From a virus: DNA of 64,000 nucleotides. The stretch spans positions 111,956-175,955 of IMG/VR virus record IMGVR_UViG_3300045988_175607, one strand, 5' to 3'. Under the pieces are notes generated by a model that saw only the letters and a program-made list of their open reading frames with translations, was not told the origin of the DNA and ran no database searches. Within the stretch, counting starts at the first letter, position 1, and every line of letters starts with the position of its first letter. This document shows, piece by piece, positions 12,305 to 63,838 of this stretch. The position numbers were made by a program, and so were the translations under genes.

Positions 12305-13033
12305 TTAGTTTTCTTTTAAAATGGCTTTAAGCTTTTCACGATATGATTCTAAGTATGTTATAAATATTTGGAATCGAGTTGTACGTGCAATGATATGGCC
12401 AGTTTTTTCAAGGAAACGTCTAATACAACTTCTAAAAGACAAATAATCATGTTCATCAGCTTGCATTAATCCAAAAAATTCTTCTGGACTCATTTCACCT
12501 TGATATACTGCATCAGCTAATAATGCAGCTTTTTTAATTATATCAGGACTGCGCGAATAGAAATCTGTAATAATTTGGTCAAATAAAATTACCTCATCTC
12601 CAGTCATAAGACGATAATGATCATAATCATCAAGTTTAATGCCCCAAATATAATCACGACTACCTATTTCACCATAGCTATCATCATCTTTAGTTATACC
12701 AAACAATTTAACTAAAATCTTTGATATTATTCTTTTAGCAGTCCTTTCACTGGTAAAGTAATTCTAAAGCATAAATAAACGTGCCATGCCGCTTATAGTT
12801 CCAAGACTATCATTCTCTTTGGCACAACGCAACACTTCATCAATAATTAATAATTCAGTTCTTGCATCGAAGTTTCTTTCATAAGTATCTTGGTATATTT
12901 CATTTATAATAACGCCACCATAAACTTTCTCATATTCGCAAAAATGAGAAAGCTTTTCATAGAATTTTACTGATGAATTTCTAAAATGACCGAACGACAC
13001 ACCAAACCAAGCAGCCAATTCTTGAGTTTTCAT
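12305..13033 (-). CDS. HTH-containing protein (243 codons), possible replication-initiator-like; one in-frame TAG at 12764-12766 fuses two ORF-track fragments
   Basis: 12764-13033 and 12305-12706 are in one frame across TAG (…ARLFML-TAG-NYFTSERTAKRIISKILVKLFGITKDD…); N-terminus MKTQELAAWFGVS is HTH-like. Confidence 0.5.
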
Positions 13034-13344
13034 TTTTCCCAGCTATAATTTCATAACATAAACATCCTCCTTTCTTTTAAGAGTCAAGAAAAAGTTGTAA
13101 TATTTTTTGGCACATCTATATGTCTTATAGAGAGGCCATTTTTCATTACAACTCTGACAAGATAATTAAACTTGTCATATCTTTCTACTTTATATAAAAA
13201 AAATATTTAATCTGTTTTATCATTCTTGCCCAAAGAAGCATAAAAAAAATGTGGGCCAAGCCCACGGAAATATGATATTTTTTTGACACGGTATGTTCCT
13301 TTCTTCCGGTGTAAAAAAAGGAACAACTATCACAAATGTTTTGT

Positions 13345-13440
13345 TCTGTTTCAAAATGAGAATTTTAAGATGAGATTTTCATTTCATTTTTTGAAATGAG
13401 TTTTCAATTTTAAATTGAGTTTTTGAAATCAAATTTTGGT
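13345..13440. repeat. iteron-like direct repeats (AAATGAGWTTTT x4-5)
   Basis: aaatgagaattttaagatgagattttcatttcattttttgaaatgagttttcaattttaaattgagtttttgaaatc. Confidence 0.45.
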
Positions 13441-13794
13441 TTTCTTTTTCATTATATATATAATAACATATTTTTATCAAATTGTAAAATAAAATATATA
13501 TGTTAATTTAAAGCGGAAACGGTTACGATAAAAAGAATGTGACCCTGAACGCGCGGTCGGCCACCACTCTTCCCCAATTCTAACATTTCTTTTTACTTCA
13601 CTCTACGCTCGTCAATTTTGTAACTATGTTTGTGATATCTAAGAATTTTAATTCCAATCTACAAAATTCAAGCTCTATAACCCCAACTCCACAATCTATT
13701 GTCAAAAAGATTGTCCTACCAGCTATTTTATCAAAACTCAAGCGCTTTATACTTACGTACAAAGCGCCCCTACATTACAATCAATTTTGAATAA

Positions 13795-13838
13795 AACACC
13801 TGCATTTCAAAAGTGTGTGAAAATTGCAGGTGTTTATA
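13795..13838. repeat. inverted repeat AACACCTGCA...GAAAATTGCAGGTGTT; its right arm recurs at 14700-14716
   Basis: aacacctgcatttcaaaagtgtgtgaaaattgcaggtgtt; acts as a terminator-like hairpin for the minus-strand gene. Confidence 0.5.
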
Positions 13839-13885
13839 TAAACTAATTGGACTTTATAGAATTTTATCCTACAAAACTCTACTTT

Positions 13886-14626
13886 TTAATCCTCAAACAC
13901 TAGCTCATCTATCAATTGCGTTCTCTTTTCTGGGAAGAATCCCAACTCTTCCGTTACCAACATCACAAACACATTATAATTATCTTCAGTTGACATAGTT
14001 GAATAACGCAAAGCCTCTTCTCGCTCAACCTTATTAATCTCGCCCTTGTGATAAGCATCATCAATTACAGCAATGCGCTCACTTTGTTCTCCATAAGCCT
14101 TTTCCGCACACTCTCTAATAATCTTCCTCGAATCCGCATCAAGAATATCAGTGCCTTCTTTATTCATCCAAACATACTAACTTCTGCCGCATTCACCATA
14201 ATCATTCTCAATATAATTTCTACCATAAGATTTACGTTTCCATATTCCAACATAAGAACAAACAGTCTTCTCAGAAACTTGTGCGCTTACTTCATTATTT
14301 TTACTATAAATACTTCTACCAACTCTTGTACCAGTATCAATCTTGGCTTTTCCCGCAGGAGTCAACCTATTGTTTTTATCTCTTACATTACCCCACTCTT
14401 TTGGAGCTTCTTTTTCAATCAACTCATAAGCTTTAGAATAAACAGGAATCTTAACTTTATCAATAATAATTCTTGATTTATCATAATGCCAATCTGCAAA
14501 TCCACTCAAAATTTTCATTTTTTTTTCTTTAACACTTGCACGACTTTTACCTAATGTATCTGGTTTTAACCCAAACCATGAAGATAATTCTTTTAAAGAA
14601 ATATAACCTTCTTTAAGTTCAATCAC
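13886..14626 (-). CDS. hypothetical protein (246 codons); in-frame TAG at 14177-14179 fuses ORF-track fragments 14177-14626 and 13886-14167
   Basis: …ENDYGECGRS-TAG-MVWMNKEGTDILD… continuous in one frame. Confidence 0.5.
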
Positions 14627-60991: not shown

Positions 60992-62110
60992 ATGGGTATT
61001 TCAAAAATTAAAGTTGGCTCTTAGATTTATGATATTAAAGATAATGATATATTATAGAAAACAACCGCTGATAATGCAAATGTTTTCTTTAAAATAAATG
61101 AAGAGGGCAAATTAGATACTTCTGCAATATTAAATTTATTTTCTGCGGAAGTTATTATGAATAATAAATTATATCAAACCTTTGAAGAAGCGCTTGCAGA
61201 AGCCGTGGTTTCTACAATTAAATTAGTACATGATGTTGTTTTAGAACAGCAAGCAGTAATTAAAGATGGTCAAACAATTACCATTGATTTAAATGGTCAT
61301 AATATAATTGCGGCAGAAAGCATGGTTTTAACTTCTGGCCTTTTAGCTGTACATCATGGCGGTTCATTAACTATAAAAGGTCAAGGTACTATTTATGGTT
61401 GCGCCCCTGGCGGTTTGGTTTATGCGGGCATAGTTTTAACTGTAGATAAAACTGATAATGACAGTAGTAAACCCGCACGTTTAACTATTAATGGCGGTCA
61501 TATTATTGGCGAATGTTATGGTATTAGTGGTAATGGTACTGATGCTACTCGCGGCAATACTGAGCTTATTGTTAATGGTGGCACTATTGAAGCTATTGGT
61601 AATATTACAACTGAAGGTAATGCCGGTATTTATTAGCCGCAATATAATAGTAAAACCACTATCAATGGTGGCACTGTTATCGGCCATACTGCTATTGAAG
61701 TGCGTAGTGGTAATTTAAATATTAATAATGGCACATTTATTGGAAATGGTTATTCTTACAATCTAATTCATGAAAATAAGGGTGGCCCTGCTTCAAATGG
61801 TGCGGCTATTGCTATTGTACAACATATAACAAAACAGCCCATTAATGTAAAGATTAAAAACGGTTTATTTAAAGGTCAAATCGCTTTCATTGAAGCCAAT
61901 CATAGCAATGACTTTGTTTATGGTAATAATATAACTCTTTCTATTGATGGTGGCTCTTATGGCGTCACTGGCGATAATGTTGAAGTTATACATAGTGATA
62001 ACATTTCTCAATTTGTCCATGGTGGCGATTTTACTCATGCGGCAGTAGCTAAAAAGTGCATTGATCCTGAAAAATTTGATGTAGACAATTGGAGTTCTCT
62101 TTACAATTAA
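60992..62110 (+). CDS. beta-helix (pectate-lyase-like) tail-fibre or tailspike-like protein with three in-frame TAG codons
   Basis: ATG 60992; TAG at ~61025, ~61061, 61634; Gly/Asn/Ile-rich repeats (NGG.I.G.G, INGGTIEAIGN, INNGTFIGNG); ORF-track fragments 61157-61636 and 61700-62110 are in frame. Confidence 0.55.
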
Positions 62111-62247
62111 TGGTCAGCGTTAACGGCCGGAATTTCAATTGATTTCGCCTATAGGAATTTTTTAATCAAATTGTCCATTAAATTGCAAAACCTTAAATTT
62201 TATGATATAATTTATTTGTAAAGTATAATTAAGAAAGGACAAAATTA

Positions 62248-62682
62248 ATGGACAATTTTGATTCCAATACTTCTTATAACAAAGAAACCGGTGAAGCAAT
62301 TTATACCATTACTGATGGTATTTTTAATTTTGTTGGTCGAGCTAAATGTCATGAAAATGATAAAGACTTGGGAAATGAATTGACTGGTATGCAAATTGCT
62401 GCACTTCGTGCGTATATAAAAGCTTTTCAATATGAACGAGAAATGGCCATTGTTCAAGTAAATACACTTAAACATTGCATTTCCACTATGTCAATGAGTC
62501 CTCGTTATAATGAAAAGTCCTATGAAGCCAAAAAGATTCGTAGAGAACTTTATTTAGCTGAAAATGATTTAAAATCTATACGCAGTAATATTGCTATGGC
62601 ACGACAGGCTCTTAAAAAATATATAGATGATAAAGATGCTGCTTATAAGCATATTCGTAAATTAAGGGCCAAAAATAATTAA
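62248..62682 (+). CDS. hypothetical protein (144 aa)
   Basis: RBS aagaaaggacaaaatta. Confidence 0.5.
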   Translation: MDNFDSNTSYNKETGEAIYTITDGIFNFVGRAKCHENDKDLGNELTGMQIAALRAYIKAFQYEREMAIVQVNTLKHCISTMSMSPRYNEKSYEAKKIRRELYLAENDLKSIRSNIAMARQALKKYIDDKDAAYKHIRKLRAKNN

Positions 62683-62729
62683 AAAAGATTAATTATTTTT
62701 TATATTCATATGAACGGAAATACAAATCC

Positions 62730-62948
62730 TTGATAAGGAGAGTGGACTTCATAGAAGCATTACTTTGGTTTATTCTAGGAATATTTTTCGATGCGTGGAT
62801 TCGTCCAATAATGGATTCATTAGTGAATTTAATTAATTCAATAGTTGATAGCCATACCGCCAAAAGCCAAATTGAAATTGCAAAAGCTAATGAACAAATT
62901 CAAAGTTTCCAAGAACCAATAGGCAATTCAAATGTAATTGGTTTTTAG
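62730..62948 (+). CDS. possible small membrane protein; start unclear
   Basis: Hydrophobic ALLWFILGIFF; only non-ATG starts available. Confidence 0.3.
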   Translation: MIRRVDFIEALLWFILGIFFDAWIRPIMDSLVNLINSIVDSHTAKSQIEIAKANEQIQSFQEPIGNSNVIGF

Positions 62949-62995
62949 ACTCCCGATACAGTGGAATATTATGATTATGATGAGGACGATGATGA

Positions 62996-63838
62996 ATGAT
63001 CTATAATTTTTATGATACTTGTAGTTTATTAATGCGCGCAGCGAACTTATTCGACGATATTAATGAGAAAATTATAATATCTTCTGTAACCTTACAAGAA
63101 TTAGAAAATATTAAAACTTCTCTTAATAAAGATGCGGAAATTAAATACAATGCTCGAAAGTTACTTCGCACTTTAGATGAAAATTCTAATAAATATGAGG
63201 TAGTAATTTTCAAGGAATCAATGCTAGAGCCAATTCAACAAGCTGATTTACCCATTAATGATGATATGCGAATTTTAGCTTGCGCAATTTGGCAAAATAA
63301 TCACTCGCCCGCAATGGATGATTTACATTTTATTACTAATGATTTAGCTTTTAAACAAATAGCTAATCTTTTTTTTGGGAACGGAATGATTCATTCTGTT
63401 TCTGAAGAAGATACTGAAGAATATTTAGGCTATAAAGAAATATAGTTAAATGATTAGGAACTTGCTAATTTATACTCTAATATTACTTTAAATAAATATA
63501 ATTTATTAGAAAATTAGTATCTTATAATTCGTGATTAGAATAATAAAATTGTTGATACATTAAAGTGGAAAAATGGTGAACATCATCATTTAGCTTTTGG
63601 AAATTTAAATTCTCGTTATTTTGGTGAAATAAAACCAATGAAAGGAGACGTTTATTAGGCTTGTTTAATTGACAGTTTAATAAATAATCAATTAACTTTG
63701 GTTAAAGGGCCGGCAGGCTCAGGCAAAACACTCCTGTCTCTGGCTTATCTTTTTTCACAAATGGAACGAGGAAAAATTGATAAGATAATTGTATTTTGTA
63801 ATACTGTAGCAACAAAAAATTCTGCACGACTTGGGTGA
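62996..63838 (+). CDS. PIN-domain plus PhoH-like ATPase (YlaK-like) gene with five in-frame TAG codons; 3' part possibly truncated
   Basis: N-terminus MIYNFYDTCSLL (PIN); the same frame continues through TAG at 63443, 63455, 63515, 63536, 63656 into …IKPMKGDVY-TAG-ACLIDSLINNQLTLVKGPAGSGKTLL (Walker A). Confidence 0.5.

Follow-up and report, generated by a model that had tools for sequence, protein, structure and literature searches.

Whether the triplet TAG is read as an amino acid in an uncultivated virus, which amino acid that would be, and what decodes it are the questions raised by a 64,000-nucleotide (nt) stretch of IMG/VR record IMGVR_UViG_3300045988_175607 (positions 111,956 to 175,955 of that record; hereafter the window). 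A sequence-only reading had proposed that TAG is recoded genome-wide and is served by a transfer RNA (tRNA) with a CUA anticodon. We found TAG used as a sense codon by 16 of 72 genes, and we consider it highly probable (about 0.9) that the source of the window is an uncultivated phage of gut type, large in genome (>160 kb), in which a subset of the genes follows genetic code 15, with UAG translated as glutamine (Gln). The window has a base composition of 35% G+C and contains nine tRNA genes detected by ARAGORN, all on the + strand.

The relatives used for comparison were drawn from IMG/VR and from metagenome assemblies. Loci L001 and L023 lie on one 162-kb contig, on which most genes are 82–96% identical to those of the window at the protein level and a few are more divergent. 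L028 is syntenic with the left part of the window at 77–97% identity, L031–L034 are syntenic with the same part at 31–62% identity, and L002–L018 are contigs of 100–190 kb with 55–68% identity to the window. An IMG/VR scan with the N-terminus of the protein encoded at 13886–14626 returned no relative, and relatives of this gene were obtained through the protein database and contig look-up. Megablast of window positions 44–64 kb against GenBank phages gave no match, and in a protein search the only matches among GenBank phages were three huge uncultured phage records at approximately 40% identity. The 64-kb window contains no terminase or capsid gene by which the phage could be assigned to one of the named clades.

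TAG is a sense codon in a subset of genes

We curated a set of 72 genes with corrected starts and frames. TAG occurs in frame 26 times, in 16 of these genes (22%), and accounts for 5.2% of their Gln-type codons. With so small a share of genes and codons affected, and with strong clustering of those that are, the term 'genome-wide' was too broad. The 13 genes that had been listed as recoded each carry in-frame TAGs at the places given for them, and we add those at 62730–62999, 35225–35470 and possibly 28521–28736. The TAG-bearing genes are as follows (aa, amino acids).

12305–13033 (− strand): paralogue of the gene at 13886–14626; TAG at 12766
13886–14626 (− strand): protein with no function assigned, paralogue of 12305–13033; TAG at 14179
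15770–16300 (− strand): helix-turn-helix (HTH) DNA-binding protein, σ70-region-4-like; TAG at 16153
16284–16490 (− strand): ribbon-helix-helix (RHH; Arc/CopG-like) repressor, 68 aa; TAG at 16392–16394, in helix A
28521–28736: possible further TAG-bearing gene; TAG at 28653
31013–31603 (+ strand): precursor-like gene A; TAGs at 31019 and 31262
35225–35470 (+ strand): small gene; TAG at 35243 (codon 7)
37693–38316 (+ strand): precursor-like gene B, upstream of radical-SAM genes; TAG at 37828
45887–46438 (+ strand): DNA methyltransferase; TAGs at 45911, 45989 and 46256
50399–51607 (+ strand): serine hydroxymethyltransferase (SHMT); TAG at 50432 (codon 12)
52970–53695 (+ strand): HNH/homing-endonuclease-like gene; TAG at 53315
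55852–56103 (+ strand): small gene; TAG at 56029
60556–60984 (+ strand): gene with no function assigned; TAGs at 60778 and 60787
60992–62110 (+ strand): β-helix-like repeat protein; TAGs at 61022, 61055 and 61634
62730–62999 (+ strand): small gene; TAG at 62946
62996–63838 (+ strand): PIN-PhoH gene; TAGs at 63443, 63455, 63515, 63536 and 63656

Each of the 72 genes terminates in TAA (48 genes) or TGA (24 genes). The proposal that stops are never TAG holds for this set, but it is partly true by the construction of the open reading frames (ORFs); the finding itself goes no further than that we could identify no TAG as a terminator. The TAGs nearest to 3′ ends (62946 and 56029) align with sense codons in relatives. 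In frame, TAG makes up 0.17% of codons, compared with 2.0% and 1.2% in the two other frames. This ten-fold scarcity indicates that TAG is a rare sense codon and not a free one.

Reading TAG as sense also raises the coding density. With our own greedy set of ORFs of at least 70 aa, rather than Prodigal calls, density rose from 0.740 under code 11 to 0.804 with TAG as sense and to 0.769 with TGA as sense, which corresponds to a gain of 6.4 points under code 15 versus 2.9 points under code 4. The comparison under code 15 that the sequence-only reading had called for came out in its favour. The effect was strongest towards the right end, with an increase from 0.70 to 0.90 at 59–64 kb, and a non-overlapping ORF set with TAG as sense covered 80% of the window. 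The rise for the window lies within the 5–10% increase under the recoded code that Kienbeck et al. 2024 (PMC10879173) describe as their criterion for recoding. In a sequence this rich in AT, the codes could not be told apart by stop-to-stop ORF coverage alone.

Further evidence came from selection on the codons around the TAGs. The positions of the TAGs are conserved in L001, L023 and L028, and substitutions are dominated by third codon positions on either side of them. Around the TAG at 12766, substitutions at codon positions 1/2/3 number 3/0/9 before the TAG and 0/0/12 after it in the comparison with L028; around 16153 the counts are 2/1/10 and 11/7/23, and in the SHMT gene they are 3/2/22 and 20/8/74. 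Genes at the tail end of the window show the same pattern. An initial codon comparison had included spurious overlapping frames and was replaced by a best-frame filter with per-gene checks. Eight further TAGs (59306, 59330, 42276, 34549, 45121, 38306, 38024 and 13045) were not counted; the pattern around them was not third-position-dominated, which places them upstream of real starts or in the wrong frame. Together with family matches that run across TAGs, these data establish that 16 of the 72 genes use TAG as a sense codon and that purifying selection acts on it. Each of the 13 originally listed genes has one or more kinds of support for read-through, whether family matches, a TAG kept in close relatives amid third-position changes or, for 13886–14626, homologues of full length. 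Code 11 breaks these 16 genes into fragments, as had been suspected.

Three genes in the middle of the window have clear family assignments. SHMT matches the Pfam family of that name with an E-value of 3.5e-128 over residues 2–394, and its TAG lies near the N-terminus in the context …IIAKEE[Q]HQK…, where the bracketed residue is the TAG. The DNA methyltransferase matches phrog_799 (1.8e-29, residues 13–168). The HNH/homing-endonuclease-like gene matches phrog_374 at 3e-38, with phrog_559 spanning residues 24–240, and TAGs of its relatives fall on five CAA or CAG positions of the window.

On the minus strand, the two paralogues align with each other by BLASTP across the TAG positions of each. 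Full-length homologues of 13886–14626 are 239–257 aa long. Its TAG is kept in L028, which has a further TAG at the window CAA at 13918, and the TAG of 12305–13033 is kept in L028 at 97% identity. The extension of recoding to regulatory genes had been put forward on the basis of an RHH protein and a sigma factor. Both genes do carry TAG, but the second label was not upheld: the product of 15770–16300 scores 23.0 bits against Sigma70_r4 (cut-off 24.1), has no Pfam match to σ70 region 2, and otherwise resembles generic HTH proteins, again with scores no higher than the cut-offs; most of its PHROG matches carry the labels 'HTH DNA binding protein' or 'transcriptional regulator'. Its TAG is kept in L028 and is replaced by CAA in L031–L034. 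Read-through of the TAG in the RHH gene is borne out by sub-threshold Pfam matches (RHH_3 and RHH_1, residues 22–62) and by PHROG matches to Arc-like and transcriptional-repressor families (4.5e-5 to 3e-4) that span it, and the TAG is kept in L028 at 95% DNA identity. The RHH frame and an antisense ORF at 16309–16515 have their third codon positions in common, and the substitution pattern cannot separate them; we chose the RHH frame by its domain matches and gene orientation.

The last genes of the window have the highest density of TAGs. Both TAGs of 60556–60984 are kept in L001 at 82% identity. The gene at 60992–62110 had been called tail-fibre-like, a label that finds no PHROG match; in L001 its TAG at 61022 is CAA and the window CAG at 61835 is TAG, and all segments are third-position-dominated. 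L001 shares the TAG at 62946, where five relatives have TCA, and it has TAG at the window CAA at 62901. At 56029, in the small gene 55852–56103, L001 has TAT, with a local identity of 0.7. Among the genes further left, the TAGs at 37828 and 35243 are kept in L023, in which the window CAG at 37789 is TAG and the TAGs at 31262 (in a gene with third-position-dominated substitutions) and 46256 are CAA. The N-terminus of 35225–35470 resembles by eye that of 60556–60984, with Q at the equivalent place.

The PIN-PhoH gene was offered as a key example of recoding, and is one with a qualification. It has Pfam matches to PIN_4 and PhoH, and all five TAGs fall in the linker between the two; the context of one site reads …GDVY[Q]ACLIDSLINNQLTLVK, where the bracketed Q is the TAG. 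All five are kept in L001, and those at 63515, 63536 and 63656 are CAA in five relatives of 55% identity. The TAG at 63656 sits 17 residues before the Walker A motif. The gene is, however, truncated after that motif: its ORF ends in TGA right after …NSARLG and encodes 280 aa, compared with 419 aa in the homologue P0013 (90% identity), which runs on as …FYPGTRDE…. In L001, the following 4.9 kb (17495–22439) lack the C-terminal half and contain a third precursor and radical-SAM cassette in its place. Even so, selection acts on the TAGs of the part that remains. A PDB sequence search with PIN-PhoH gave no match, and its best 120 protein-database matches are all from phage relatives, so they provide no independent bacterial column for the TAG next to the Walker A motif.

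TAG most likely encodes glutamine

We compared TAG with sense codons at the DNA level only. Public gene calls for the relatives already use code 15, and the Q at TAG sites in their proteins is circular evidence; the Q residues in the database homologues P0001 and P0002, which are translated from TAG with code 15, were therefore dropped as support for Gln. Between the window and close relatives (77–97% identity) there are 12 swaps of TAG for a sense codon, 11 of which involve CAA or CAG. The window has TAG and the relative CAA at 31262, 46256, 50432 and 61022; the window has CAA and the relative TAG at 13918, 50723, 62901 and 63758; and the window has CAG and the relative TAG at 37789, 42744 and 61835. 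Within SHMT alone, L001 has CAA at 50432 and TAG at 50723. Since 8 of the 12 swaps involve CAA, which is two mutations away from TAG, the pattern is that of synonymous codons and not of mutational neighbours.

More distant relatives agree, with CAA at the window TAGs at 16153, 63515, 63536 and 63656, and with TAGs of their own over window Gln codons at eight positions, against a Gln background of approximately 3%. Aligning the TAG sites of SHMT, the methyltransferase and PhoH with homologues, as had been recommended, yielded CAA in each gene, including the Walker-A-proximal site on which the original preference for Gln was based. We conclude that TAG most likely encodes Gln, an assignment that is now well supported.

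A predicted suppressor tRNA with its own promoter and terminator

The tRNA with a CUA anticodon, tRNA(CUA), was recovered by ARAGORN within a compact unit. Two other tRNAs of the window have a comparable 3′ flank. The elements are as follows (HDV, hepatitis delta virus).

48010–48038 (+ strand): perfect σ70-type promoter, TTGACA-17-TATAAT, 12/12 matches, with TG before the second hexamer
48080–48154 (+ strand): tRNA, anticodon CUA (ARAGORN)
48155–48204 (+ strand): theta (minimal HDV-like) ribozyme motif, 50 nt, abutting the 3′ end of tRNA(CUA)
48206–48242 (+ strand): intrinsic terminator, 12-bp stem and T tail, closing the tRNA(CUA)–ribozyme unit
44082–44134 (+ strand): theta ribozyme motif abutting tRNA-Thr 44007–44081, which lacks CCA
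45024–45079 (+ strand): theta ribozyme motif abutting tRNA-Pro 44947–45023, which lacks CCA; a textbook fit with CC/GG P1.1

The promoter lies 41 nt upstream of tRNA(CUA). The tRNA folds into a cloverleaf with a 5-bp anticodon stem, a 7-nt anticodon loop (CUCUAAA), a GG D-loop, a TTCAAGT T-loop and a 6-nt variable loop. It has U1·C72 and A13·C22 mismatches, discriminator G73 and no encoded CCA. The label 'Pyl' that ARAGORN attaches to it is merely a name for the CTA anticodon and was rejected, as neither the D-loop, the T-loop nor the 5-bp anticodon stem is out of the ordinary; no pyl genes were seen among the annotated proteins of the window. In the L001/L023 orthologue the stems are kept through a G-C to G·U change. 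CUA tRNAs are also present in L004, L006, L007 and L009, with two each in L006 and L007, and those tested (from L004, L006 and L009) are detected by the Rfam tRNA model at 38–55 bits. Alignment of six distinct CUA tRNAs revealed compensatory changes in 15 of 20 pairs, and all CUA tRNAs of the clade combine G73 with a mismatched or wobble 1:72 pair.

In Escherichia coli, the identity set for glutaminyl-tRNA synthetase (GlnRS) comprises U35, G73, a weak 1:72 pair, G2-C71, G3-C70, G10, A37 and U38, with U35, G73 and the weak 1:72 pair as the core of recognition. The tRNA(CUA) of the window has U35, G73, U1·C72, G2-C71, G10 and A37, but C3-G70 and A38 in place of G3-C70 and U38, and the argument for Gln identity is no more than suggestive. 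It is not visibly derived from the tRNA-Gln(UUG) of the phage at 43861–43934.

Three side observations concern the tRNAs. The phage tRNA-Met(CAU) at 30200–30275 has an initiator-like U1·U72 mismatch and an acceptor stem that resembles that of tRNA(CUA). A RAGATH-33 RNA (Rfam RF03102, 138 bits) lies between tRNA genes at 1366–1478 of L009, near the tRNA(CUA) of that locus. The CUA tRNAs of L006 and L007 lie at 3910–3984 and 4183–4257, and across 2,853 aligned codons of genes homologous to the window TAG never occurs in frame in these loci; recoding in L006 and L007 may be confined to other modules.

We identified the ribozyme motifs with a structural scan of our own for a nested double pseudoknot of P1, P2 and P3, in which P1.1 was not required; the architecture was taken from the delimited examples in Supplementary Data 1 of Kienbeck et al. 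2024. In the theta architecture described there, G1 stands at the cleavage site, the catalytic C opens a CNRA J4/2 segment and P4 is absent. The scan returned three matches in the window, each one base past the end of a tRNA, and none in 20 shuffles on both strands. The tRNAs linked to them (Thr, Pro and CUA) are exactly the three of nine that lack an encoded CCA; the other six have no ribozyme. In order, the segments of the CUA-linked copy are GGTATC (P1), AT (J1/2), GTAGGG (P2), GCC (P3), TTTTCGT (L3), GGC (P3′), GATACT (P1′), AT (P1.1), TTAAA (L4), CTAA (J4/2, with the catalytic C) and TTCTAC (P2′). In L001, two changes in P2 of this ribozyme turn G·U into G-C and A-U. The Pro-linked copy has a CC/GG P1.1 and the Thr-linked copy one C-G pair, and L023 and L024 have the same arrangement on Thr and Ser tRNAs. 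Rfam gave no match for the motifs, and the exact CUA-linked sequence is not among the listed rows of the Kienbeck et al. supplementary tables. The three motifs have the theta, or minimal HDV-like, architecture and are predicted to self-cleave. Kienbeck et al. report that theta ribozymes cut at the 3′ ends of phage tRNAs, that they are frequent on amber suppressors, and that cleavage falls within ±5 nt of the 3′ end of a tRNA that usually lacks CCA. The arrangement of tRNA(CUA) with a promoter, a theta ribozyme and a terminator is a new detail of this analysis.

RNA ligase genes are enriched with theta ribozymes (Kienbeck et al. 2024), and the window encodes an RNA ligase (53688–55085). It also encodes an AAA_33 kinase-like protein followed by a metallophosphoesterase (59366–60447), a second metallophosphoesterase and an RNase T-like exonuclease. 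We speculate that these RNA-end enzymes might heal the cyclic-phosphate end that the ribozyme would leave. Two further proteins are encoded amid these ligase, kinase, phosphoesterase and RNase T genes: one with DUF2828 and DUF7788 domains and a PHROG match to 'RNA-binding protein' (46526–48013), and one of 813 aa with major-vault-protein shoulder and repeat domains (56367–58808). The setting suggests an RNA-repair or ribonucleoprotein-like neighbourhood.

Alternative explanations

We weighed three alternatives to the reading of TAG as Gln decoded by this tRNA. If TAG were still a stop, the interrupted genes would be pseudogenes, assembly errors or cases of rare leaky read-through. In-frame TAG is indeed rare, and the truncation of PIN-PhoH relative to its 419-aa homologue means that at least one TAG-rich gene could be decaying. 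Decay does not account for the same TAG positions in relatives of 77–97% identity, for the third-position-dominated substitutions that flank TAGs (as at 12766 and in SHMT) or for the alternation of TAG with CAA and CAG among relatives, even within SHMT. With 16 genes affected and a cognate tRNA in five related lineages, we regard the chance that TAG remains a stop as next to nil. A sense codon for another amino acid, such as Trp, Tyr, Lys or pyrrolysine, is slightly less implausible and still very improbable. G73 is also the Trp discriminator in bacteria, the window has TGG where L023 has TAG at 46052, and Lys codons align with TAG at six window positions in distant relatives. In addition, approximately 19% of suppressor tRNAs are predicted to have the Trp isotype (Kienbeck et al. 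2024). Against these points stand the 11 of 12 close-relative swaps that involve Gln codons, eight of them the two-step CAA; Lys is expected at a Gln-like exchangeable site; and pyrrolysine enters only through the ARAGORN name of a tRNA with ordinary loops.

An unlikely alternative, although less remote than the other two, is that TAG encodes Gln and that 48080–48154 is not the working suppressor, with decoding by another phage tRNA or a host factor. The Rfam tRNA model misses both this tRNA and its L001 orthologue, even at E≤10, and the mismatches at 1:72 and 13:22 and the 6-nt variable loop are atypical enough to lend the idea some weight, as do the two CUA tRNAs each in L006 and L007 and the restriction of our view to 64 kb of the phage genome. 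Yet all four stems are complete and persist in the orthologue, the gene is flanked by a perfect promoter and a terminator of its own, the adjoining ribozyme shows compensatory changes in the orthologue, and the weak 1:72 pair and G73 are common to CUA tRNAs of the clade, which looks like selection and not decay. Several of the observations above also weigh against our preferred reading of a code 15 phage with its own suppressor, and others join them. With the Rfam result below detection, the function of tRNA(CUA) is a prediction; Gln charging is deduced from codon swaps and E. coli identity rules, to which C3-G70 and A38 do not conform; and P1.1 of the CUA-linked ribozyme is a single U-A pair in place of the usual C-G. 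No release factor (including release factor 2, RF2), aminoacyl-tRNA synthetase or CCA-adding enzyme is present among the annotated proteins of the window, in which we also recognized no structural or lysis genes.

TAG use is clustered

The TAGs are distributed unevenly over the window. At 60.5–63.8 kb they make up 11 of 44 Gln-type codons (25%, p=2e-6). They are absent from the 86 Gln-type codons at 17–28.5 kb (p=0.013) and from the 55 at 2.9–11.6 kb (p=0.10), and genes of at least 400 aa have one TAG in 143 Gln-type codons (p=0.003). Random placement would spread the TAGs over 20.8 genes, compared with the 16 observed (P=0.009). At 12.3–16.5 kb, four genes on the minus strand (RHH, HTH and the two paralogues) carry one TAG each, and L028 keeps all four at the same positions. 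In L031–L034, TAGs occur elsewhere in the HTH gene and in the paralogues, and the RHH gene was not found. Several relative lineages have no TAG in 2,400–2,850 aligned codons of homologous genes.

The window contains seven perfect TTGACA-N16–18-TATAAT promoters, all on the + strand, where 0.13 would be expected. One is that of tRNA(CUA); the other six lie in a TAG-free block at 0.4–11.4 kb:

387–415 (+ strand): perfect promoter
3313–3341 (+ strand): perfect promoter
7138–7166 (+ strand): perfect promoter
7668–7696 (+ strand): perfect promoter
11164–11192 (+ strand): perfect promoter
11390–11418 (+ strand): perfect promoter

The sequences suggest that this block is an early region read by a host polymerase of the σ70/σA type, and that the promoters of the host are not of the Bacteroidota type.

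A possible translational timer

These elements can be arranged in a proposed mechanism. Host RNA polymerase would transcribe the stand-alone tRNA(CUA)–theta ribozyme–terminator unit from its perfect σ70-type promoter. The ribozyme would then cleave itself and set the tRNA 3′ end at G73-C74, after which host or phage RNA-end-healing enzymes would remove the cyclic phosphate from the tRNA and CCA would be completed. The Gln-charging system of the host would aminoacylate the tRNA, with which U35, G73 and the unpaired 1:72 are consistent, and the charged suppressor would compete with release factor 1 at UAG. Genes without TAG, including the 0.4–11.4 kb block with its six perfect promoters, could be translated at once. 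The TAG-bearing genes (the 12.3–16.5 kb regulators, the 60.5–63.8 kb block and scattered others) would be made at full length only after the suppressor had accumulated.

In such a scheme the code switch would act as a translational timer. Borges et al. (10.1101/2021.08.26.457843) have modelled a switch in which the genes in standard code are expressed first, together with the switch machinery, and translation of the recoded genes follows, and the division of the window into a TAG-free, promoter-rich block and TAG-bearing modules fits that model. A bolder version is that the switch times the transcription programme and not only structural and lysis genes, with tRNA maturation as a clock of infection. 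We hold this tentatively and think it rather unlikely. If true, the regulators at 12.3–16.5 kb would be made only after ribozyme cleavage, end healing and CCA addition on the suppressor.

Other features of the window

Next to the 12.3–16.5 kb regulators is a non-coding stretch of approximately 710 nt (11599–12307) that is 81–84% identical in DNA to L028, L031 and L034; the gene next to it has only 31% protein identity to L031. The stretch contains GC-rich hairpins, with fold z-scores of approximately −1.7 on both strands, and Rfam gave no match for it. A small gene at 14946–15374 (+ strand), between the TAG-bearing regulators, occupies the same place as 9304–9711 of L031, which like its counterparts in relatives has a weak Pfam match to Rsd/AlgQ, an anti-σ70 regulator. 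The window gene, which is placed by position and not by alignment, may belong to a module for sigma-directed takeover of the host. At 18501–19112 (− strand) lies a gene for a 203-aa membrane protein; syntenic relatives are annotated there as formate/nitrite transporters (PF01226), an unusual phage cargo.

The window (31013–34244 and 37693–41114) and L001 (17740–22411) contain repeated cassettes in which the gene for a small precursor-like protein precedes one or two large genes. The precursor-like proteins have a C-terminus rich in Cys, His and Ser. In the window, 31604–32866 has a radical-SAM PHROG match and 38321–39667 a CxxxCxxC motif, and the second cassette genes (32847–34244 and 39633–41114) have no family match; in the L001 cassette each of the two large genes has CxxxCxxC. 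TAG is found in the precursors and not in the maturase genes. From these features the cassettes look like a multiplied peptide-maturation module.

Comparison with known systems

Code 15 is known from gut phages that include Lak, crAss-like, Jade, Sapphire, Agate, Garnet and Amethyst phages (Borges et al.; Devoto et al. 2019, PMC6784885; Peters et al. 2022, PMC9523058), with proteomic proof in crAss-like phages (Peters et al. 2022). The window resembles these phages in carrying TAG in part of its genes and in modules, in having a phage tRNA(CUA), in ending genes with TAA or TGA, in having some clade relatives without in-frame TAG in homologous genes, and in the translational switch that has been proposed. 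It differs in that no RF2 was seen in the window, in that its TAG-bearing genes encode RHH and HTH regulators, a methyltransferase, SHMT and a homing endonuclease, and in that its promoters suggest a σ70/σA-type host and not a Bacteroidota-type one. The contrast once drawn with some recoded phages, in which recoding would be confined to late structural genes, does not hold, because partial, module-wise recoding beyond structural genes has been described, as has mixed code use within a clade (Borges et al.).

The ribozymes agree with the theta ribozymes delimited by Kienbeck et al. 2024 in segment order and lengths, in the CTAA J4/2 and in the layout of P3 and L3, as well as in a predicted cut at the 3′ end of CCA-less tRNAs, one of them an amber suppressor, and in an RNA ligase gene in the same genome. 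The CUA-linked copy departs from those examples in its U-A P1.1 and in a 6-bp P1 with G1·U. Borges et al. cite glutaminylation of amber suppressors. Like supE-type amber suppression in E. coli, the window tRNA pairs a CUA anticodon containing U35 with G73, a weak 1:72 pair and G2-C71; unlike it, the window tRNA has C3-G70 and A38 and shows no visible origin from the tRNA-Gln(UUG) of the phage.

TAG-to-Gln recoding, phage suppressor tRNAs and the theta ribozymes on them have thus all been published. For annotation, the practical consequence is that the window and its relatives need code 15, since code 11 breaks SHMT, the methyltransferase, the homing endonuclease, PIN-PhoH and two regulators. 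The most useful by-products of the analysis are the clean tRNA–ribozyme transcription unit and the separation of promoter-rich TAG-free genes from TAG-bearing modules, and this sharp split, together with a compact full recoding set-up, makes the window a convenient test case for the idea of a code-switch timer. Together, these comparisons identify the window as a further example of a known system, that of code 15 phages with suppressor tRNAs processed by theta ribozymes, and not as a new kind.

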